Below, piece by piece: positions 3,220 to 63,418 of a stretch of DNA of 64,000 nt. How positions within the stretch are numbered: the first letter of the stretch is position 1; each line of letters starts with the position of its first letter. The notes under the pieces were generated by a model. It had not been told where the DNA came from. It worked only from the letters and a program-made list of their open reading frames with translations, and made no database searches. This stretch comes from an uncultured Candidatus Saccharibacteria bacterium. GTDB taxonomy: Bacteria; Patescibacteriota; Minisyncoccia; Phycocordibacterales; UBA9973. The stretch lies in assembly GCA_964622505.1 (NCBI GenBank), contig CAZUQJ010000001.1, positions 44,240-108,239 of the forward strand, in the 5' to 3' direction. Position numbers and translations under genes: made by a program.

Positions 3220-6200
3220 ATGAAAAATACTACTTACAAAAAAATATTAGTACTCGGTTCAGGCGCTCTGAAGATTGGTGAAGCAGGGGAATTTGATTAT
3301 TCTGGAAGTCAGGCAATCAAGGCATTGAAAGAAGAAAAGATAAAAGTTATTTTAATCAATCCAAACATCGCTACATACCAAACTTCCAAAGATTTGGCTG
3401 ACGAAGTATACTTCCTACCTGTCAATGATTATTTCGTAGAGAAAGTAATTGCAAAAGAACGCCCAGATGGAATCATGCTTTCATTTGGAGGGCAAACAGC
3501 GCTCAACTGCGGACTACTACTTGAGTCACGTGGTATTTTGAAAAAGTACAAAGTGGCAGTACTTGGTAGTCCTGTAGCATCTATTGAGCTTACAGAAGAT
3601 CGGCAAATGTTTGCCGATCATTTACGCAAGCTTGGCGTTGCTGTCCCACCATCTGGAACTGCAACCAATTTTAAAGAAGCGGAAAAAATTGCAAACACAA
3701 TTGGATATCCACTTATGGTGCGCGCGGCATTTGCACTTGGTGGGCAGAAGTCAGGTGTAGCATACAATGCAAAAGATCTAAAAGAAATTGTCGATGGGGC
3801 CCTTGCTATATCGAACCAAGTCTTGATCGAGAAATATCTGCACCACTTTAAAGAAATAGAATACGAGGTAGTCCGCGACAAGTTCGACAACACAATTACT
3901 GTATGTAATATGGAAAACTTTGATCCGCTTGGTATCCATACCGGCGACTCAATCGTGATCGCGCCGAGTCAGACTTTATCAAACGATGAATATCATGGTT
4001 TGCGTGAGGTAAGTATCAAGATAGTAAAGAGCTTGAAGATAGTTGGTGAGTGTAATGTGCAGTATGCATTGAATCCAAATCCGAAAAACGGGGAGTTGGA
4101 CTACTACGTCATCGAAGTCAACGCACGCCTTTCACGCTCAAGTGCATTGGCAAGTAAAGCCACCGGGTATCCACTGGCGTATGTGGCTGCCAAATTGGCA
4201 CTCGGTAAGAGCTTGCTCGAAATCAAAAACAAAATTACCGAGGTGACTCAGAGCTTCTTTGAGCCGGCTCTCGACTATGTGGTGGTCAAGATGCCTCGTT
4301 GGGATCTGATCAAGTTCAAAGGAGCATATGAAGAGATTGGTAGCGCGATGAAGTCGGTGGGTGAGGTCATGGCCATAGGCCGAACATTTGAAGAAGCTCT
4401 ACAAAAAGCTGTCCGAATGCAATCAGGTAATGTGGAAAGCATTACAGACAATAACTTCAAAGACAAAAAGGAAATTACAAAATATCTATATACTCCAACT
4501 CCAAACAGACTTTTTGCAGTAGCAAATTCAATGCTTCAAGGTATGTCTGTGGATGCTGTTCACAAAATCACCGGTATTGATAAATGGTTCCTCTATCGAT
4601 TGGAAAATATTGTGCATATAGAACAGAATCTAAAGAAGAGTAAGAAATTGGACCATGATACAATGCTCAATCTAAAACAAACGGGGGCTTCGGATAAAAA
4701 GATCGGACAGTTGTGTGGCAAAACAGAATTTGAGATTCGCAAAGTGCGAAAGAATTTAAATATAATGCCAAGCGTTTTCCAGATTGATACGTTGGCTGGC
4801 GAAATTCCTGCACGTACAAACTATCTATACCTGACTTACCACGGTAGTCACCATGACGTGGCGCCACTTGGTGCCAATGCTGTAGCTGTGCTCGGTAGTG
4901 GGCCGTACCATATTGGATCTTCTGTTGAGTTCGACTGGTCATCTGTGAATGCAGCGCTTGCGCTCAAAAAGCATAAAAAGCAGTCAATTATTGTAAACTG
5001 CAATCCGGAGACTGTATCAACTGATTATGACATGTCCGACAGATTGTATTTTGAAAATATTTCTTTTGAAACTGTGGCAGATATTTATGAATTCGAGAAG
5101 GCACTTGGATTGATAATCTCTGTTGGAGGACAAAGGCCAAATAATTTGGCCAACAAACTAAATCGTGAAGGATATAATATTCTCGGTACAAAAGCCGAGG
5201 ACATTGATCGCGCAGAAGACCGCAACAAATTCTCGGCATTACTCGACAAGCTCGATATCGCTCAGCCAGAATGGCAAAGCTTTACCAATATCAAAGAAGC
5301 CGAGAAGTTCGCAAACAAAGAGGGCTACCCAGTGCTCGTGCGCCCATCTTATGTATTATCTGGAAGTGCGATGAATATTTGCTATAGCAAGGCCGAGCTT
5401 TATGACTTCGTTACCAAGGCTGCGGTTCTGTCCCCAGAATACCCGGTAACAATTTCCAAATTTATCGAGAATGCAAAAGAGCTTGAGTTCGATGCTGTCG
5501 CGCAAAAAGGGCAAGTAATGATTTATGGCATATCGGAGCATGTGGAGAATGCAGGAGTCCACTCTGGTGACGCGACTATAGTGTACCCAACACAGCGTGT
5601 ATATGCATCAACAGAATTCCAACTGCAAGAAATTTCCAAGAAAATTGCAAAAGAATTAAATATTACAGGTCCATTCAACATCCAATTTCTCGTGAAAGAC
5701 AATCGCCCTATGGTGATCGAGGTCAACGTCCGTGCGTCGCGCACATTCCCATTGCTTTCAAAAGCGATGGATGCCAATTTCCCCGAAATTGCAGTGGATT
5801 CATTTTTTGGACATGCTTCCAAACACGAATATGTTTATCCGAATAGTGTGGTGGTGAAGTCTTCACAATTCTCTTTCTCCCGACTCCTTGGCGCGGACCC
5901 AGTATTGCGCGTTGAAATGTCTTCGACTGGCGAGGTGGCCTGCTTTGGTAAAGATTACGACGAAGCCTTGCTCAAGTCAGTGCTATCTGCAAATAAATTT
6001 GATTTCAATAAAAAGGCTGTACTATTCTCACTCGGAGGACTTGTAAACAAAGCCAAGTTCCTCGAAGCTGCCAATTCAATGGCAATCCTCGGCTACAAAA
6101 TTTATGCGACAGATTCGACTGCGGAATTTTTCAAAAAGCACAACATCGATTGTCATGTGGTCAAAAAAGCTCACCAAGGTACTCCAAATGTCCTCGATAT

Positions 6201-7407: not shown

Positions 7408-8337
7408 ATGCGTCACATACTAAACACAAATCAATTCAAAAAAGAAGACATTGAACAAATCTTTTCTACAATTCCAAAGATGGAGGAGTTGTGTGAGAAT
7501 TTGAAAAAGGGTACTCGTATCGAGCGTCCTCTTGAAGGCAAGATTATTGCTTGCGTATTCTTTGAGCCATCGACACGTACTCGGCTCTCTTTCGAGACAG
7601 CAAGTTTGCGACTCGGGGCAAAGGTGATCTCTGCCGAAAATGCTTCCGAGAATTCTTCGGCTCATAAAGGCGAAACTCTCGAGGATACTGCTCGGACGCT
7701 TTCGTGCTATGCCGATGCTATTGTGACTCGGCACTACCAAATGGGTGCGGCGGAATCTATGTCGCATTCTTCGACCGTACCGATTATCAATGCAGGCGAT
7801 GGGGCAAACCAGCACCCTTCACAAGGTTTGCTTGATTTATATACTATACAAAGTGAGCATGGGCGATTGGAGAATTTGAAAGTTGCGTTTGTTGGTGATG
7901 TACTCAACAGTCGTACACTTCGATCGCTTGTACCACTATTGATGCTATACCCAGGCAATACATTTTATTTTATCTCACCAAAGGAGCTTAAGCTCGATGA
8001 GAACTATAGGAAATTCCTACAAGATAACAATGTCAAATTTGAAGAGCTCGACAATCTCGACGGCACGCTTCCAGAAGTAGATGTGCTCTATATGACACGT
8101 GTACAAAAAGAACGATTTGCAAACGAGGCCGATTATGAAAAAGTAAAAGATTTGTTCCTACTAACACCAGAGCATGTTGCGCAATTGAAAGGCGACGCAA
8201 TCATAATGCACCCGCTCCCAAGAATAAATGAGATCGACCCCGAAATTGACAGTGATTCAAGAGCAGCCTACTTCCGCCAAGCCCAAAACGGCCTGTATGT
8301 CCGCATGGCATTACTACTTTATGTGTTTGGGTTATAG
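7408..8337 (+). CDS. pyrB: aspartate carbamoyltransferase catalytic subunit
   Basis: STRTRLSFE carbamoyl-phosphate-binding motif, HPLP motif; ATG at 7408 preferred over the GTG at 7348 listed in the ORF track. Confidence 0.9.
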   Translation: MRHILNTNQFKKEDIEQIFSTIPKMEELCENLKKGTRIERPLEGKIIACVFFEPSTRTRLSFETASLRLGAKVISAENASENSSAHKGETLEDTARTLSCYADAIVTRHYQMGAAESMSHSSTVPIINAGDGANQHPSQGLLDLYTIQSEHGRLENLKVAFVGDVLNSRTLRSLVPLLMLYPGNTFYFISPKELKLDENYRKFLQDNNVKFEELDNLDGTLPEVDVLYMTRVQKERFANEADYEKVKDLFLLTPEHVAQLKGDAIIMHPLPRINEIDPEIDSDSRAAYFRQAQNGLYVRMALLLYVFGL

Positions 8338-9775: not shown

Positions 9776-10834
9776 ATGAAAAAAGAGGAATCATCTCATA
9801 TCGCCCTATATCGTAAATACCGCCCGCAAGCTTTTGCTGATGTTGTCGGTCAGGATCATATTGTGACTGCGGTTAAAGGCGCGCTTGATTCTGGCAAGGT
9901 CAGCCACGCATATTTGCTCTGTGGTCCACGTGGTACAGGCAAGACAACAATTGCGCGGATTATCGCCCGTGAGCTTGGCACAAGCCCAAACGATATCTAT
10001 GAGCTCGATGGTGCAAGTAATCGCAAGATCGAAGATGTGCGTGAGATCCGCGAAAATATCCGTACACTACCTTTTGATTCTAAATACAAAGTCTACATTA
10101 TCGATGAAGTGCACATGTTTACAAAAGAGGCATGGAATGCACTATTGAAAACTCTCGAGGAGCCACCTGAGCATGTCATATTTATACTTGCAACGACCGA
10201 GCTCGACAAAGTACCCGAGACAATCATTTCGCGTTGTCAGACTTTTACTTTCCACAAGCCGACAGATCTTGTCCTGGCCGAAGTTGTTAAAAACACAAGC
10301 AAGAAAGAAGGGTACAAGATCGATGAAGGAGGGGCAGAGCTTCTGGCATTGATCGGTGATGGCTCATTTCGTGATACGTTGTCGAACTTGGATAAAGTAA
10401 TTTCTTTTGCAAAGAGCAAAAATATTACGATAGCTGATATTGCAGGCGTGACTGGTGCGCCGGAGCGCACACTCGTAGAGGACTTTATATCCTCAATTGC
10501 AACCAATGATATCGCACGGGGCTACGAAGTGGTCCATACTGCGAGTATTCAAAATGTAGACATGAAGATCTATATCAAAATGATCCTTTCAACACTCCGC
10601 TATGCACTCATGTTGCGCTACGCTCCGAATACAAAGGCAAAAATTGCTTCATCTCTATCAGCTCACGACATGGAATTTATTTCCGATATTATAAAAGACA
10701 AGCCGGAATTCATCACTTCTCGCACACTTTCCGTACTTCTTGAAGCGTACCAGAGTACACGTTTTGCATTTATCGCGGAGTTGCCACTCGAGCTTGCTCT
10801 TGTAGATATATTAAAAAATGACACAAAGGCGTAA
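9776..10834 (+). CDS. dnaX: DNA polymerase III subunit gamma/tau (short, gamma-like form)
   Basis: AAA+ clamp-loader motifs LLCGPRGTGKTTIARIIAREL, DEVHM, SRC; only 352 aa (domains I-III). TATACT -10 box ends 6 nt before the ATG. Confidence 0.9.
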   Translation: MKKEESSHIALYRKYRPQAFADVVGQDHIVTAVKGALDSGKVSHAYLLCGPRGTGKTTIARIIARELGTSPNDIYELDGASNRKIEDVREIRENIRTLPFDSKYKVYIIDEVHMFTKEAWNALLKTLEEPPEHVIFILATTELDKVPETIISRCQTFTFHKPTDLVLAEVVKNTSKKEGYKIDEGGAELLALIGDGSFRDTLSNLDKVISFAKSKNITIADIAGVTGAPERTLVEDFISSIATNDIARGYEVVHTASIQNVDMKIYIKMILSTLRYALMLRYAPNTKAKIASSLSAHDMEFISDIIKDKPEFITSRTLSVLLEAYQSTRFAFIAELPLELALVDILKNDTKA

Positions 10835-10967: not shown

Positions 10968-11004
10968 AAAAGAAAATGCTCTCGCAAGAGAGCATTTTCT
11001 TTTT
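10968..11004 (+). terminator. Rho-independent terminator after dnaX (followed by a second hairpin at 11012-11045)
   Basis: GAAAATGCTCTC-gcaa-GAGAGCATTTTC then TTTTTT. Confidence 0.6.
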
Positions 11005-11124
11005 TAGAGCTTGGGATTTGGATATGTATCGTATCCAAATCCCAGCCTCTAAGCAAGTGTTTAGAATTTACTGGAAAATTTGTCCTTTTAAAATAATAAA
11101 TATAAAAAATAAATAATAAAATTT

Positions 11125-11607
11125 ATGGATACAGTTAATCAAACTTTTCTGATCGATGGTGGCCCCGCATTTGTGCGCCATGGCGTTTCTACTCCCGTGC
11201 TTCTTCATAAATATTATGATGAAGGTGAATGGAGTCCTAATCTTTTTTCTCTTGAAATTATTAAAGACAAAGAAGAATTTCTAAATATAAGGCGTGGTGC
11301 AAATTGCCATGCCCTGGAATTCTATTTCAGAAACCAGAAACTAACACGAGAGCTTGTTGCCAATTCAGGAGTTACAAAAATCATTATTGTGGGTACTGTT
11401 TTCAGTCTGCATGGGGATCCTCATTATGAGGTTTTAAACCTTATTCCAAATGCGCATGTCGACAAGGAATGGTTTTATGGTTTTGAAACTGCTGATGCAA
11501 TATTACAATCAAAGGAACTGGTGGCCGTATTGTTAACAAATCAAACACTGTCTATTATCAACTTGTCAGATTCAGATGTTGTAACTGTGGGTCATGGAAC
11601 TTGCTGA
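11125..11607 (+). CDS. hypothetical protein
   Basis: 160-aa ORF ending in TGA, with GCCCCAGT/ACTGGGGC terminator at 11633-11665. Confidence 0.4.
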   Translation: MDTVNQTFLIDGGPAFVRHGVSTPVLLHKYYDEGEWSPNLFSLEIIKDKEEFLNIRRGANCHALEFYFRNQKLTRELVANSGVTKIIIVGTVFSLHGDPHYEVLNLIPNAHVDKEWFYGFETADAILQSKELVAVLLTNQTLSIINLSDSDVVTVGHGTC

Positions 11608-12019: not shown

Positions 12020-13459
12020 ATGAAAAACTTGGTAGAAATTGTTGGCGATATCGAGCCTTTGAACATAAAGGGCTCTTTGGACGTATTGATTTCCTCTGTT
12101 TCTATCAATTCTGCGCTTGTAGTTCCCGATGCACTTTTTATTGCTATTGTCGGCGCCCAAGTTGATGGCCATGATTTTATTGACGACGCAATCAGTAAAG
12201 GTGCGAAAGTTATTGTCTACGAAAAAGATATAGAATTCAAAGATGGGATTGTATATATCAAAGTTGCTGATAGTCATGAAGCATCGGGTAAGATTGCCAA
12301 TGCTTATTATGATTATCCTTCAAAAAAATTGAAAATTATTGGTGTCACAGGAACAAATGGCAAGACAACTATTGTTACACTACTTCACCAACTGTTTCGC
12401 AACCTTGGATACAAAGCGGGCATGATCGGGACAGTAGCAAATAAAATCAATGACGATAGTGTTGAAGCAGTCCGCACTACTCCCGACCCGATCACACTCA
12501 ACGAAACTTTGGCTCAAATGGTAGAAGCGGGTTGTGGGTATTGCTTTATGGAAGTTAGCTCTCATGCGGTAGCGCTCAAACGTATCGAAGGATTGGAATT
12601 TGTAGGTGGCGTATTTACCAACCTCACGCATGACCATCTGGATTTCCACAACACTATAGAAGAATATGCAAAAGCCAAACAAGATTTTTTCACTAGTTTA
12701 CCATCCACAAGTTTCGCACTTTCAAATATGGACAGTGACAAGGGAGAGTTTATGCTGGAATCTACAAAAGCAAAAAAGTATTTTTATTCAAGAGAAAAGC
12801 CTGCAGATTTTACTGGCGCAGTAGACACCAAATTGATAGGTGACTTCAATCAATCAAATATATTGGCTGTACTTGGTACGGCAGTATTGCTAGGCGTAGA
12901 CGAGAAAGTAGCGAGAGAGGAGATCAAAAAGCTTGATCCAGCGCCAGGCAGATTTATATCATGGACCAGTCCGACTGGTACAATTGGGATTGTAGACTAT
13001 TCACATACCCCAGATGCTTTGGAAAATGTGTTAAAAACAATCCAAAATCTTGTAGGTGTCCAACACCTACATAAGGAGGTGTCCAACACCTACAAGCCCA
13101 AAGTGATTACGGTTGTGGGTTGTGGTGGTGACCGAGATAAAGCAAAGCGTCCAGTGATGGCTAAAATTGCTTATAATATGAGTGATATTGTGATCCTGAC
13201 TTCAGACAATCCCCGTAGTGAAAATCCTCAAACGATTTTGGTTGAGATGCAAAAAGGTCTACCAGAAAATTATCAGAACAAAGTACAAATAATAGAAGAT
13301 CGGCACTTGGCAATCCAAAAAGCATGCGAACTCGCAAAAAGTGGTGACTACATATTACTTGCTGGCAAAGGTCATGAAAATTACCAAGAGGTAAATGGAG
13401 TCAAAACGCATTTTGATGATATGGAAGAATTAAAAAAGTGTTTTGATAAAATGATATAA
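12020..13459 (+). CDS. murE: UDP-N-acetylmuramoyl-L-alanyl-D-glutamate--2,6-diaminopimelate ligase
   Basis: Mur ligase motifs IGVTGTNGKTT, DYSHTPDALENVL, VGCGGDRDKAKRP, DNPRSENP; ORF track start 12011 is TTG, first ATG at 12020. Confidence 0.9.
   Translation: MKNLVEIVGDIEPLNIKGSLDVLISSVSINSALVVPDALFIAIVGAQVDGHDFIDDAISKGAKVIVYEKDIEFKDGIVYIKVADSHEASGKIANAYYDYPSKKLKIIGVTGTNGKTTIVTLLHQLFRNLGYKAGMIGTVANKINDDSVEAVRTTPDPITLNETLAQMVEAGCGYCFMEVSSHAVALKRIEGLEFVGGVFTNLTHDHLDFHNTIEEYAKAKQDFFTSLPSTSFALSNMDSDKGEFMLESTKAKKYFYSREKPADFTGAVDTKLIGDFNQSNILAVLGTAVLLGVDEKVAREEIKKLDPAPGRFISWTSPTGTIGIVDYSHTPDALENVLKTIQNLVGVQHLHKEVSNTYKPKVITVVGCGGDRDKAKRPVMAKIAYNMSDIVILTSDNPRSENPQTILVEMQKGLPENYQNKVQIIEDRHLAIQKACELAKSGDYILLAGKGHENYQEVNGVKTHFDDMEELKKCFDKMI
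13049..13096 (+). repeat. 48-bp twin-hairpin palindromic element inserted in-frame in murE (copy 1 of 2)
   Basis: CTTGTAGGTGTCCAACACCTAC-ATAAGGAG-GTGTCCAACACCTACAAG encodes VGVQHLHKEVSNTY, an insertion relative to the usual MurE linker before GCGGDRD; near-identical copy in atpG at 61228-61275. Confidence 0.6.
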
Positions 13460-25764: not shown

Positions 25765-27471
25765 ATGAATACTGCATCCTTTAAAACGCGCATACACATC
25801 GTAGCTCTATGCGTTTTTCTATTTGCGTGCATACTAGTGTTGAAACTCTTCTCTCTTGGTATTGTAAACCAGAACAAATATGCTGAGCGCGCCGACAAGC
25901 AGTACGCAACTCCGACCGGCGACATGTTTGACCGAGGTAACATATTTTTTACTAAAAAGGATGGCTCTTTGATCGCTGGGGGCAACGTGATGTCTGGATA
26001 CAAAGTGGCAATCAAGGCAAAAGATATAAAGGATCCAGAAGGGTTGTACACAATAATGTCACCATATACCAAGCTTACCCATGATGAATTTATAAAAAAA
26101 GCCACAAATGTCACTGACCCATACGAAGAGGTAGCTACAAGGCTTACCAAAGAAAATGCCGATGCGATTTCAGTGCTTAAAATTGCCGGAGTCTCTATTT
26201 TCAAACAGAAATGGCGGTTTTATCCCGGTGATACACTTGCATCGCACGCAGTGGGATTTGTCGCTTTCAAAGGCGATGAGCGAATAGGTCAGTATGGACT
26301 GGAGAAATATTATAATAGTACGCTCATGAAGCCAAAAGAGGACTTGTATGTCAACTTTTTTGCAGAAGTGTTTTCAAACATCGGGAAAACTTTTTCGAAC
26401 ACCAAAGAGGGCGATATTGTGACTACGATCGAGCCAACAGTTCAGTCTACTCTGGAGCAAGAGATGCGCGCAACAAAAGAAAAATGGAATGCCGACCAGA
26501 TAGGCGCGATTATTATGGACCCAAAGACTGGGGAGATCTATGCGATGTCGGCGATGCCGGATTTCGACCTCAATAATTTTGGTAGTGTAGACAATCCAAA
26601 GACTTATGCCAACCCGATTGTCGAAAGTGTTTTTGAATTCGGATCGGTGATCAAGCCATTGGTGGTAGCGGGAGCTCTGGACCAAGGGGTTATTACTCCA
26701 GAGACAACCTACACAGACAATGGATTTGTGGTTGTAAATAAAAAGACTATCAATAACTTCGACAAAAAGGCAAGAGGTTTGGCGACAATGCAGACAGTAC
26801 TCGATCAGTCTCTCAACACAGGTATGGTATTTATCGAAAACAAAATGGGTCACGACAGTTTCCGTAAATATATGAAAAGTTATGATATGGGATCAAAGAC
26901 TGGAATAGATTTGCCCAACGAGACAAGTGGTCTGGTAAAAAATCTGGATAGCAAAATCGACTTAGACTATGCCAACATGTCATTTGGTCAAGGACTAGCG
27001 ATTACCCCAATTGGTGCCATTAGAGCATTTGCAAGTATTGCCAATGGTGGGACACTAGTGACTCCCCATGTAGTAAAAGAAATCAGATACGAGGATGGCA
27101 CTTCCAAAACACTTTCATTCCCCCCTGCGAGAACGGGACTCTTTAAAAAAGAATCGACCGATGCAACAACCCGCATGCTCGTGCACGTGTTTGAATCATA
27201 CGGCAGTGGGTCGTATAAAATAGAGCATCATTCTGTCGCAACAAAGACAGGTACTGCGCAAGTGGCGCTCGAGGTGGGGAAAGGGTATTATGATGACAGG
27301 CATACTCATTCCTTTTTTGGATATTTCCCAGCTTACGACCCCAAATTTATTGTATTTATTTTTATAAAAAATCTTAAAGGTGCACGATATGCTTCCGAGA
27401 CGCTGATCCCACCGTTCGTCAACACAACAAAATTCTTGTTAAATTATTATAATATCCCTCCTGACAGGTAA
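25765..27471 (+). CDS. ftsI: peptidoglycan D,D-transpeptidase FtsI (PBP3-like)
   Basis: Transpeptidase motifs SVIKP (SxxK), SLN (SxN), KTGTA (KTG); dcw-cluster position. Confidence 0.85.
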   Translation: MNTASFKTRIHIVALCVFLFACILVLKLFSLGIVNQNKYAERADKQYATPTGDMFDRGNIFFTKKDGSLIAGGNVMSGYKVAIKAKDIKDPEGLYTIMSPYTKLTHDEFIKKATNVTDPYEEVATRLTKENADAISVLKIAGVSIFKQKWRFYPGDTLASHAVGFVAFKGDERIGQYGLEKYYNSTLMKPKEDLYVNFFAEVFSNIGKTFSNTKEGDIVTTIEPTVQSTLEQEMRATKEKWNADQIGAIIMDPKTGEIYAMSAMPDFDLNNFGSVDNPKTYANPIVESVFEFGSVIKPLVVAGALDQGVITPETTYTDNGFVVVNKKTINNFDKKARGLATMQTVLDQSLNTGMVFIENKMGHDSFRKYMKSYDMGSKTGIDLPNETSGLVKNLDSKIDLDYANMSFGQGLAITPIGAIRAFASIANGGTLVTPHVVKEIRYEDGTSKTLSFPPARTGLFKKESTDATTRMLVHVFESYGSGSYKIEHHSVATKTGTAQVALEVGKGYYDDRHTHSFFGYFPAYDPKFIVFIFIKNLKGARYASETLIPPFVNTTKFLLNYYNIPPDR

Positions 27472-27476
27472 ACGCA

Positions 27477-27518
27477 CCCAAGGTCGGACCTAGGGCTAGC
27501 CCTAGGTCCGACCTTGGG
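27477..27518. repeat. 42-bp perfect GC-rich palindrome in the ftsI-murF intergenic spacer
   Basis: CCCAAGGTCGGACCTAGGGC-TA-GCCCTAGGTCCGACCTTGGG (20-bp arms); no U-tract follows; murF ATG is 10 bp downstream. Confidence 0.6.
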
Positions 27519-59400: not shown

Positions 59401-60903
59401 ATGAAAAAGAACACAATTATAGACAATTTAAGAAAAGAGATCGAGAACTTCAGTATGGATATGAAGGTAGAAAAGGTGGGCAAAGTGGTAGAAGTTTTTG
59501 ACGGTATTGCAAAAGTGTCTGGACTCTCTGATATCAAAGCTTCCGAAATGGTCACATTCGCCGGTGGGGAAACAGGTGTGGCATTGAACCTCGAAGAGGA
59601 TTCTGTTGGTATCATCATTTTGTCAGACTTTTCAAAGATCAAAGAAGGTGACGAAGTCCGCGCAACAGGCAAGATCTTGGAAGTCCCTGTTGCCGATGCC
59701 CAAATCGGCCGTGTGCTCAACGCTCTCGGTATGCCAATAGATGGCAAAGGTGCGATCAAGACAGACAAGACAAATCCTATCGAAAAAGTTGCTCCAGGTG
59801 TGGTAACTCGCAAGAGTGTGGACCAACCAGTGCAAACTGGTATCAAAGCTATCGACGCTATTATTCCAATCGGCCGTGGACAGCGTGAGCTTATCATTGG
59901 TGATCGCCAAACAGGAAAGACTGCGATCGCTATCGATGCGATTTTGAACCAAAAAGGCCAGAATATGATCTGTGTGTACGTTTCTATCGGTCAAAAGGAT
60001 TCCAAGCTTCGCAAACTCCAAGCACGTCTGGAAGAAGGGGGTGCGATGGATTACACAATCATCGTTTCTGCAGGTGCGTCCGAACCATCACCATTGGCAT
60101 ACATCGCTCCATATACAGGTGTTGCGATCGCTGAATATTTTATGGATCAAGGTAAGGATGTGCTGATCATTTACGATGATCTTTCCAAACACGCTGTAGC
60201 GTACCGCGAAATTTCACTTCTACTTCGTCGTCCACCAGGCCGTGAAGCTTATCCTGGAGATGTCTTCTACTTGCACTCAAGATTGCTTGAACGTGCTTGC
60301 CGACGCAATGCCGACTACGGTGGTGGATCAATCACAGCCTTGCCGATTATCGAAACTCAAGCGGGCGATATTTCTGCGTACATTCCGACCAACGTGATCT
60401 CGATTACTGACGGACAAATTTTCTTGGAAACTGATTTGTTCTACAAAGGTATCCGCCCTGCGGTAAACGTCGGATTCTCTGTGTCTCGCGTGGGATCAAG
60501 TGCCCAGATCAAAGCCATGAAGAAAGTTGCCGGAACGCTCAAGCTCGACTTGGCGCAATTCCGCGAACTCGAAGCCTTTGCGCAATTCGGATCAGATCTT
60601 GACGATGCAACCAAGCGCCAATTGGAACGTGGCAAGCGTGCAGTGGAAGTCCTCAAACAACCTCAATACTCTCCAGTGATTGTTGAACACCAAGTGGCTG
60701 TATTGTACGCACTTGTAAAAGGCTACATGGATGACATAGCAATCGACAAAATCAAAGAATTTGAAACAGGTTTGGTTGAATACACTGAGCGTGCAGTACC
60801 AGCATTCTTTAAAGAAGTAAAAGAAAAAGGTATGTACTCTGAGGAGTCCGAAGAAGTATTTAAAAAGTCATTAGCGGATTTCAAAACAGGATTTGTAAAA
60901 TAA
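59401..60903 (+). CDS. atpA: F0F1 ATP synthase subunit alpha
   Basis: P-loop [11 protein letters not shown] and overall alpha signature. Confidence 0.95.
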
Positions 60904-60915
60904 AAATTAATCAGG

Positions 60916-61848
60916 ATGGCAAGTACAAAAGAAATCAAATCACGAATAAAGAGTGTCAAGAACACAAAAAAGATCACCAAGGCTATGGAACTTGTTGCTG
61001 CTTCCAAAATGAAGCGCGCGGTTTCTTCGACTTTGGCATCTCGTTTGTATGCTGAGTATTCATGGGAGATTTTGACTTCGATTGCAAATAGTACAGAGGA
61101 GATTTCGCACCCACTTTTTGTACAACGCCCTGTTAAAAATATTTTACTTGTGCTGATTACTTCTAACCGTGGTCTCTGTGGCGCCTACAATGCTCAAGTG
61201 ATAAAGAAATCCCTAGCTTTACTCTCAAACGTAGGTGTTGGACACCTACATAAGGAGGTGTTGGACACCTACAATATAGATACTATTACGATAGGTCGCA
61301 AAGGTGACACTGCAATGCGCCGAATTGGACGTAATGTCATTGCAAGCTTTACCGAATTGCCAGATACAATCAAGCTTGCCGATATAGTGCCAGCGTCGTC
61401 AATGATTATAGATGAATACGCAAGTGGTCGTTATGACAAAGTCCTCGTGGCTTACACCGATTTCGTTTCAGCATTAACTCAAAAGCCAAACATCAAACAA
61501 ATCCTCCCAATTTCAAAAGAGCAGATTAAAGAATTAATAGATACAGTAGGTGAGAATGTTGATAACAAAGAAGAAATTCCTAAAGCCCACATTGACTACA
61601 CTTTTGAAGGTGATCAGGAAGCACTACTCAAATCATTGGCCGAGAAGTTGTCACGAATGCAGATCTACCAAATGCTCCTTGAATCCAATGCCTCCGAGCA
61701 GTCATCGAGAATGGTAGCGATGAAAAACGCATCAGATGCTGCAGGAGAAATGATAGATGATCTGACATTAGTATTCAACAAAGCCCGCCAAGCGTCGATC
61801 ACACAAGAAATATCAGAAATCAGCGCCGGTATGGCAAGTGTAAGTTAA
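60916..61848 (+). CDS. atpG: F0F1 ATP synthase subunit gamma (carries the 48-bp palindromic insertion)
   Basis: ITKAMELVAASKMKRA N-terminus, NRGLCGAYN, C-terminal ITQEISEI; insertion NVGVGHLHKEVLDTYN. Confidence 0.9.
   Translation: MASTKEIKSRIKSVKNTKKITKAMELVAASKMKRAVSSTLASRLYAEYSWEILTSIANSTEEISHPLFVQRPVKNILLVLITSNRGLCGAYNAQVIKKSLALLSNVGVGHLHKEVLDTYNIDTITIGRKGDTAMRRIGRNVIASFTELPDTIKLADIVPASSMIIDEYASGRYDKVLVAYTDFVSALTQKPNIKQILPISKEQIKELIDTVGENVDNKEEIPKAHIDYTFEGDQEALLKSLAEKLSRMQIYQMLLESNASEQSSRMVAMKNASDAAGEMIDDLTLVFNKARQASITQEISEISAGMASVS
61228..61275 (+). repeat. 48-bp twin-hairpin palindromic element inserted in-frame in atpG (copy 2 of 2)
   Basis: AACGTAGGTGTTGGACACCTAC-ATAAGGAG-GTGTTGGACACCTACAAT; identical to the murE copy except that both hairpin loops are flipped (CCAA to TTGG). 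Confidence 0.6.

Positions 61849-62056: not shown

Positions 62057-63418
<1,362 letters not shown>

Follow-up and report, generated by a model that had tools for sequence, protein, structure and literature searches.

In-frame dimers of a REP-type palindrome in murE and atpG of an uncultured Patescibacteria genome, probably members of a mobile family found beside Y1 transposase genes in relatives

Repetitive extragenic palindromes (REPs) and the REP-associated tyrosine transposases (RAYTs) that accompany them have been treated in several studies (Nunvar 2010, PMC2817692; Bertels & Rainey 2011, PMC3116915; Ton-Hoang/Messing 2012, 4er8; Bertels 2017), with GTAG-headed REPs flanking RAYT genes described in Proteobacteria (PMC2817692). 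At one of its ends a REP carries a GT(A/G)G head that is described as unpaired (PMC2817692, PMC3733652), and a RAYT is recognised by a conserved N-terminal Thr and by NP(L/V)(R/K)xG next to the tyrosine (PMC2817692). Di Nocera, De Gregorio & Rocco 2013 described GTAG/CGTC REPs lying in frame inside genes of several phyla, with more than half of the intragenic inserts being dimers or grouped repeats, some genes hit twice, and different REPs found near the same site in related species, for example in Xanthomonas recB; the Rickettsia palindromic elements (RPEs) RPE-4 and RPE-6 were classed with these intragenic REPs (PMC3733652). Here we describe two palindromic elements lying within murE and atpG of a 64,000-nt stretch of contig CAZUQJ010000001.1 from an uncultured Candidatus Saccharibacteria bacterium (hereafter the window), which are very probably dimers of a 19-nt REP-type palindrome, GTAG-GTGT-(CCA/TGG)-ACAC-CTAC, belonging to a mobile family widespread in Patescibacteria. 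No description of REPs or RAYTs in Patescibacteria, or in the Candidate Phyla Radiation (CPR), was found in the searchable literature.

A preliminary description of the window had reported near-identical palindromic elements in these two genes, and both are found there, inside long open reading frames (ORFs), with the following layout:

12020–13459, + strand: murE, UDP-MurNAc-tripeptide synthetase, host gene of copy 1
13052–13095, + strand: REP-type dimer, copy 1, inside murE and in frame
13052–13070, + strand: copy 1, unit 1, GTAGGTGT-CCA-ACACCTAC
13071–13074, + strand: copy 1, spacer, ATAA
13075–13093, + strand: copy 1, unit 2, GGAGGTGT-CCA-ACACCTAC, then AA
60916–61848, + strand: atpG, F1 ATP synthase gamma subunit (PF00231), host gene of copy 2
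61231–61274, + strand: REP-type dimer, copy 2, inside atpG and in frame
61231–61249, + strand: copy 2, unit 1, GTAGGTGT-TGG-ACACCTAC
61250–61253, + strand: copy 2, spacer, ATAA
61254–61272, + strand: copy 2, unit 2, GGAGGTGT-TGG-ACACCTAC, then AA

Each copy consists of two 19-nt palindromes at a 23-nt period, every unit having an 8-bp stem and a 3-nt loop, with a dimer core of 42 nt and 44 nt common to both copies. Although 48 kb apart and in unrelated genes, the copies are identical at 38/44 nt, and each of the six mismatches falls within the two loops. The loops had been given as 4 nt long, but a 4-nt-loop pattern matches nothing in the window, whereas the 3-nt-loop hairpin pattern (CCA or TGG) has four matches against 0.11 expected, which are exactly the four units; the dimer centre ACCTACATAAGGAGGTGT has two matches against 0.04 expected. 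A covariance model built from nine dimers scores the murE and atpG copies at 53.9 and 53.6 bits respectively. The 5' GTAG of unit 1 pairs with the 3' CTAC, so that both ends are “heads”, and unit 2 has GGAG in this position. The copies are read in the same phase (LVGVQHLHKEVSNTYK and NVGVGHLHKEVLDTYN) and encode VGVQHLHKEVSNTY in MurE and VGVGHLHKEVLDTY in AtpG. Only one of the three phases in each orientation of the element is free of stop codons, so the shared phase needs no special mechanism, and no frame shift results because the 42-nt dimer amounts to exactly 14 codons. An assembly artefact, which the preliminary description had itself raised as a concern, is countered by the independent Logan assembly of SRR12762303 (L058), in which an identical atpG, element included, is found.

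Each element had been pictured as a pair of hairpins. The predicted minimum-energy fold, whether as RNA or as + strand DNA, is a single long hairpin in which arms 1 and 4 pair, as do arms 2 and 3, leaving a 3x3 internal loop and the apical loop ACAUAAGG, and the twin hairpins remain as an alternative conformer. The long-hairpin energies of −24.5 and −27.2 kcal/mol (z about −6; −24.5 kcal/mol with z −6.6 for the murE dimer as RNA) are far stabler than those of shuffled sequences. In a small, hand-picked set of nine related dimers, 93% of cells are paired under the long hairpin versus 90% under the twin hairpins, with 9–11/16 pairs changed on both sides, the GT...AC around each loop invariant, and none of 500 shuffles reaching the observed covariation score or paired-cell percentage; because the four arms co-vary, covariation does not separate the two folds. 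The stems being perfectly palindromic, only the loops show the orientation, and all loop combinations are present among the dimers of relatives. The copies had been said to differ by inversion of both loops with the spacer kept. The differences are indeed confined to the loops, but a second description is just as valid: once reverse-complemented, the murE core departs from that of atpG at only four positions, all within the central 8 nt, so that “both loops flipped” and “opposite orientation plus apical loop flip” fit the pair equally well. Insertion in the opposite orientation with one central flip therefore explains what had been held incompatible with simple insertion in either orientation, and the TAG expected from a full reverse complement does arise in the phase considered, but another reverse-complement phase is open.

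The murE translation is exactly that of P0121 (479 residues; 100% identical), with Pfam Mur_ligase N, M and C domains, and PDB MurE homologues match it at E values of about 1e-72 to 1e-81. The insert occupies the loop before the KVITVVGCGGDRD strand, which is 4 residues long in 96/120 of the closest homologues and expanded in 21/120. At the AtpG site, 88/120 of the closest homologues have 5–7 residues and 30/120 have an expanded loop of at least 10, with the closest insert-free relative (P0003, 86% identical) showing KDIDGA. Alignment to solved structures places gaps of 10 (MurE) and 8 (gamma subunit) residues at the insert sites. In an AlphaFold model of AtpG, of modest overall confidence, residues 107–116 lie between a helix (86–105) and a strand (120–126) and have pLDDT values <50. 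The orthologue alignments agree with the earlier claim that residues are added where MurE and AtpG are normally shorter, and the elements are confirmed as in-frame insertions relative to most orthologues.

The insertions are specific to particular lineages, and the sites have been occupied in different ways. The atpG site is empty in the relative that carries P0003 (L059), and relatives with AtpG 85–86% identical have different dimers at about the same loop, again with a period of 23, including CCCGAAGTCCGACTTCGGG-CTAG-CCCTAAGTCCGACTTCGGG in L062, in a codon phase other than that of the window, and a GACGT-stem dimer in L061. At the MurE site, dimers are found in four lineages, with 42-nt inverted dimers in L074, L075 and L076 at the same position and in the same codon phase as in the window; their stems are of GGTGT, GAGGT and GACGT type respectively, changed in all four arms together. 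The MurE of L074 (P0126) contains two separate 42-nt GGTGT-type dimers, at 881–922 and 1178–1219, with opposite loop arrangements, CCA..TGG and TGG..CCA. The L059 locus, with its empty atpG loop, has in-frame hairpins of its own, of the type TAG-NGGT-TAA-ACCN-CTA, at 7567–7585 and 10622–10640, one in atpF and the other at a second atpG site where it encodes VKPL. In L062, a 23S_rRNA_IVP-family gene (10974–11369) lies between atpG and atpD, and is absent from the window.

The palindrome is dispersed well beyond these two genes. A metagenome scan for the exact window 19-mer returned eight loci, most of them lone hairpins within AT-rich spacers, with the eight copies lying on six contigs of sample Ga0163148. 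In-frame dimers or monomers occur in further Patescibacteria in MetRS (L014), RsmH (L027), GatB (L028), a helicase-C domain protein (L035) and ScpA (L070), and PKQGFG, an insert that recurs in MurE, is what the hairpin CCCAAAGC-AAG-GCTTTGGG encodes, this hairpin being found at the DNA level in L073 as the reverse complement. A loose genome scan (AGGTGTNNNACACCT... ×2) gave 57 loci from many phyla, in which an asymmetric 15-mer is common to the Patescibacteria matches only. AGGTGTC-N-GACACCT palindrome dimers, several per genome, were seen in Bordetella/Achromobacter, Steroidobacteraceae, Thermoleophilia, Chitinophagales and Myxococcota, and the flanks of such dimers outside Patescibacteria (L001–L057, e.g. 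L005, L011, L017, L033) often extend the palindrome. A universally conserved operator or motif was considered and set aside for these matches, which are most simply unrelated REP-like families with a 6-bp arm in common by chance; the cross-phylum dimers are probably independent REP families with a common stem.

In relatives, the same or sister hairpins stand beside transposase genes. In L065, two exact window 19-mers in inverted orientation bracket an ORF of 220 residues with a match to Pfam Y1_Tnp (IS200-like) that scores 31 bits (cut-off 23), and the only NCBIfam match, in 36/36 homologues, is REP-associated tyrosine transposase, at ~28 bits against a cut-off of 80. The protein contains the HUH motif NPNHFHF (N82-H83-F-H85) and an invariant Y143...N147; among 36 aligned transposases, H83 and Y143 are conserved in all and H85 in at least 90%. 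Its AlphaFold model (pLDDT 84.8) finds its best Foldseek matches in IS608 TnpA (2a6m) and the E. coli RAYT–REP complex (4er8, TMt 0.59), the listed Y1-transposase matches having probabilities of 0.97–1.00. Hairpins of 19 nt with the form GTAG-NNGT-YSR-ACNN-CTAC flank the gene on both sides in 4/4 fetched transposase loci (L065, L071, L072, L073), which are on contigs of related Nomurabacteria/Paceibacteria, with a locus-specific stem type, GGTGT in L065 and GACGT variants in L071–L073, so that hairpin type co-varies with transposase locus; the flanking pair is inverted by loop sequence in L065 and L072 only. The family is large, with 5061 homologues at E<1e-5, those named at source being mostly Nomurabacteria/Paceibacteria/Parcubacteria and some bearing the name RayT given by JGI. 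The sample that yielded L065 also yielded L070, with genes 65–77% identical to those of the window.

The transposase ORFs carry a REP of their own. At residues ~58–66, 36/36 aligned transposases (alignment columns 72–90) contain a peptide read in frame from a REP, GVQH/GVGH/DVQR/DVGR/DVRR followed by L or P, in a loop that is modelled with low confidence and immediately precedes the HUH strand. The ORF-internal hairpins lie at 2659–2677 in L065, 3361–3379 in L071 and 1893–1911 in L072, and at residues 59–65 of the ORF at 1830–2492 in L073. At the DNA level, their stem type equals that of the flanking REPs in 4/4 loci, and the internal REP may be a cis-regulatory or self-recognition site.

These observations suggest a mechanism in which a single-strand-specific HUH/Y1 transposase of the IS200/RAYT-like kind would recognise the folded hairpin and cut beside it, with REPs or REP dimers copied or moved to new sites during replication. 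Such an enzyme would be what mobilises the window elements, and its gene would then lie in the genome from which the window comes. The murE and atpG copies probably descend from one master dimer, as judged by their common derived GGAG second head and ATAA spacer, and would have landed in surface loops tolerant of extra residues, with only the stop-free phase in each orientation passing purifying selection in essential genes; the inserted peptides would be neutral passengers. The loop states, or the central flip, could be inversions between the perfectly complementary arms, which would also allow homogenisation with other copies and hence the concerted stem changes at orthologous sites. A further reading, which we offer tentatively and regard as possible rather than probable, is that in Patescibacteria, with genomes almost devoid of intergenic space, the REP/Y1 system routinely writes peptides of 7–14 residues into the surface loops of housekeeping proteins (MurE, AtpG, GatB, MetRS, RsmH, ScpA), with colonised sites overwritten again and again to agree with the hairpin type current in the lineage, and the transposase-internal REP perhaps acting in cis for autoregulation or self-recognition. 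The turnover of elements at fixed sites in this reading rests on the joint change of all four arms in the MurE dimers; if true, it would be a previously undescribed route for REP persistence and for diversification of essential proteins.

Several results weigh against a Y1-driven mobile family. A tblastn search of the 64-kb window with the transposase finds no Y1 transposase gene, and the organism of L065 is only moderately related, with common genes 42–47% identical to those of the window. The RAYT-specific NP(L/V)(R/K)xG and N-terminal Thr are not in the transposase alignment, which has YVxWNYxVH and HIYNRG in their stead, and the enzyme stays below the NCBIfam REP_Tyr_transpos cut-off. Searches of PDB sequences with the transposase, single or as a profile, give no match. 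Neither a target-site duplication nor a defined target motif was seen at the elements, and a covariance-model scan of the window finds only three dimers. Additionally, selection on structure, and not turnover by a transposase, could account for the perfect hairpins kept at the orthologous MurE site.

Two other explanations place the function of the elements in the host gene. The preliminary description proposed an RPE-like element whose Shine-Dalgarno (SD) core between two hairpins causes ribosome pausing or internal re-initiation in murE and atpG. The SD-like string AAGGAGGTG is identical in both copies, has three exact matches in the window, and falls partly within the apical loop of the long hairpin; these points speak for such a role, but the string is absent from every related dimer, with ATGAATCAGGTG, GAGATACAGAGG or CAGGAACAGACG at its position in the same-site MurE dimers and GGGCTAGCCC or GGAAGCACTG in the atpG dimers. 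GGAG or GAGG occurs at −20 to −4 in only 3/47 long window ORFs, and a TATAAT box ends a few bases before the start in many (e.g. 18756, 43144, 52566), which suggests that initiation in this organism is mostly leaderless or non-SD. GGAGG is not avoided inside genes (38 observed vs ~25 in a rough composition-based estimate), and no ATG, GTG or TTG lies 5–10 nt downstream of the string in either copy. With the SD core missing from related elements and so few genes preceded by one, a translational role is unsupported and very improbable, and the SD resemblance is an incidental by-product of the AGGTGT arm abutting the two G's of a G-rich spacer. A broader proposal, that the element is a selected nucleic-acid structure serving the host gene by affecting the stability of its mRNA, by pacing translation where domains meet or by binding a protein, with the transposase link secondary, draws on the very stable folds, on the perfect stems kept with two-sided pair changes at the orthologous MurE site across lineages only 67–75% identical in protein, and on the argument of Di Nocera et al. 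that many REPs act as RNA elements (PMC3733652). Most close relatives nevertheless have no insert at either site, the same hairpins are dispersed in spacers and unrelated genes, and the arms change jointly to the type that flanks transposases, for which replacement or homogenisation is a better fit than stepwise compensatory mutation; we consider this proposal rather improbable.

Two further explanations concern the manner in which the sequences moved, or whether they moved at all. The hairpins could be the ends, or solo ends resembling palindrome-associated transposable elements (PATE-like), of an autonomous IS200/IS605-type insertion sequence (IS), and not REPs served by a domesticated single-copy RAYT. 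The Pfam Y1_Tnp match, IS608 TnpA as the top fold match, the missing RAYT motifs and the differing gene neighbourhoods of L071 and L072 all agree with an IS. The left and right subterminal hairpins of IS200/IS605 elements are distinct, whereas a gene here has the same perfect palindrome on either flank; RAYTs supply both the best-covering fold match and the sole NCBIfam match; hairpins are far more numerous than genes in the fetched DNA; and L065 and L073 have the same UDG neighbour upstream, which suggests vertical inheritance. An autonomous IS is unlikely. Alternatively, the elements could be immobile, whether as ancestral coding sequence, as the product of in-place template switching with a 23-nt tandem duplication, or as an assembly artefact. 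The units do form a 23-nt tandem repeat and MurE relatives have an insert at the same site, but immobility is scarcely credible given two 44-nt copies with the same derived GGAG/ATAA junction in unrelated genes, an atpG site that is empty in the closest relative, the same 19-mer in spacers and genes of other organisms, and the element's recurrence in an independent assembly.

Compared with REP/RAYT systems, the likeness of the window elements and their relatives' loci lies in short palindromes that are GC-richer, have a GTAG(G) head and frequently form dimers, in an HUH/Y1 gene bracketed by two REPs whose hairpin type tracks the locus, and in the fold match to 4er8; the 19-nt units agree with the short-palindrome stem-loop form of REPs (20–40 nt). 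The differences are that the GTAG head pairs with CTAC in a symmetric 19-nt hairpin with a 3-nt loop, that dimer spacers are just 4–6 nt with direct and inverted dimers both present, and that the relatives' enzyme is without the RAYT signature motifs, extends ~70 residues further at its C-terminus and contains a REP in its own ORF. Many copies here are intragenic, in a phylum (Patescibacteria) of very small genomes; the murE and atpG copies are not extragenic as REPs are by definition, although related copies are mostly intergenic and REPs within genes are on record as a minority class (PMC3733652).

The intragenic REPs of Di Nocera et al. share monomers and dimers lying wholly within genes and read in frame, and double and same-site hits, which the P0126 MurE with its two dimers and the atpG and murE hot spots parallel, and because of these matching features we take the window elements to be of the same kind. 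Those REPs come from Opitutus, Rickettsia, Thauera, Xanthomonas and other taxa, add 20–30 residues where the window dimers add 14, and lie mainly in DNA repair genes, whereas the hosts here serve the cell wall, ATP synthase and translation. The preliminary statement that no equivalent had been described does not hold, in-frame REP monomers and dimers being on record for several phyla, and its analogy to RPEs was apt, RPE-4 and RPE-6 being themselves classed as intragenic REPs (PMC3733652).

Like RPE-1, the window elements are selfish palindromes that lie in frame in essential genes, add a surface peptide and belong to a reduced genome. RPE-1 (Ogata et al. 2000) is said to be a palindrome of ~100–150 bp, from a sequence family specific to Rickettsia and with no known transposase, whereas the elements here are of 42–48 bp, differ in sequence, belong to a Patescibacteria host and are tied to a Y1 family in relatives; the murE/atpG element works like an RPE, being selfish, palindromic and read in frame, but does not belong to RPE-1. 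With IS200/IS605 and PATE elements the common feature is a single-strand HUH/Y1 enzyme that recognises hairpins, but neither their differing subterminal hairpins with cleavage tetranucleotides nor a multicopy IS is seen here.

If the elements are what they very probably are, they extend REP/RAYT-type systems to the CPR and explain puzzling short insertions in conserved Patescibacteria proteins, GVQHL/GVGHL, DVGRL and PKQGFG being translations of hairpins. This is relevant to how CPR proteins are annotated, aligned and used in phylogeny, and also to quality control of metagenome-assembled genomes, since assemblies can break at palindromes. It touches, too, on the survival of mobile DNA where a genome has minimal non-coding space, and removes the claim of an internal SD regulatory device.

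Apart from the two dimers of the murE/atpG type, the window holds one dimer of another type and two candidate hairpins:

27477–27518, no strand assigned: third dimer, 19+4+19 build with inverted units, of another sequence family, intergenic
41970–41988, + strand: candidate single REP-like hairpin in gatB, TCGGAAGT-CCG-ACTTCCAA, weak
12963–12981, + strand: candidate hairpin in murE, GGACCAGT-CCG-ACTGGTAC, encoding WTSPTGT

The third dimer consists of CCCAAGGT-CGG-ACCTAGGG, the spacer CTAG and CCCTAGGT-CCG-ACCTTGGG, and as a whole (CCCAAGGTCGGACCTAGGG-CTAG-CCCTAGGTCCGACCTTGGG) forms a perfect palindrome with a 19-bp stem, with an RNA fold of −41.9 kcal/mol (z −9.3) and a covariance-model score of 50.5 bits. 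It sits between a PBP transpeptidase ORF (25765–27471) and a Mur ligase ORF (27528–28820), and its design is nearly that of the in-frame atpG dimer of L062. The gatB candidate has 7/8 pairs and the GT-NNN-AC core but scores only 8.4 bits, and may be due to chance; its core GGAAGTCSGACTTCC recurs in the L061 atpG and behind a gene in L075. The murE candidate has a counterpart, TCACCAGT-CCG-ACTGGTGT, at the orthologous site of the L076 murE (3408–3426). This TSPTG-encoding hairpin, (A/C)CCAGT-CCG-ACTGG(T), is conserved in its MurE position between two lineages with 72% protein identity and brings no gain in length; the region is presumably as long as in E. coli-type MurE, so the candidate is not an obvious insertion. 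The GT-YSR-AC tip alone is not enriched in the window (25 observed vs 21.5 expected), and in an Rfam scan of the window only three tRNAs reach gathering scores, the elements matching no family.

The atpG gene stands between atpA (59401–60903) and atpD (62063–63418). Elsewhere in the window, a non-coding array of ~500 bp (36835–37340) lies between an ORF of 432 residues with no Pfam match (35539–36837) and a YqeY-like gene. It has no Rfam match and comprises ~22 alternating units, TGTTTTAAAACCA / TGTGAAAAACCA, with variable spacers of ~9 nt and a period of 21–22, given as 43 by TRF, and a GC hairpin, CCCTCCTGCATTCGCGGGAGGG, lies in the array region at 36879–36900.

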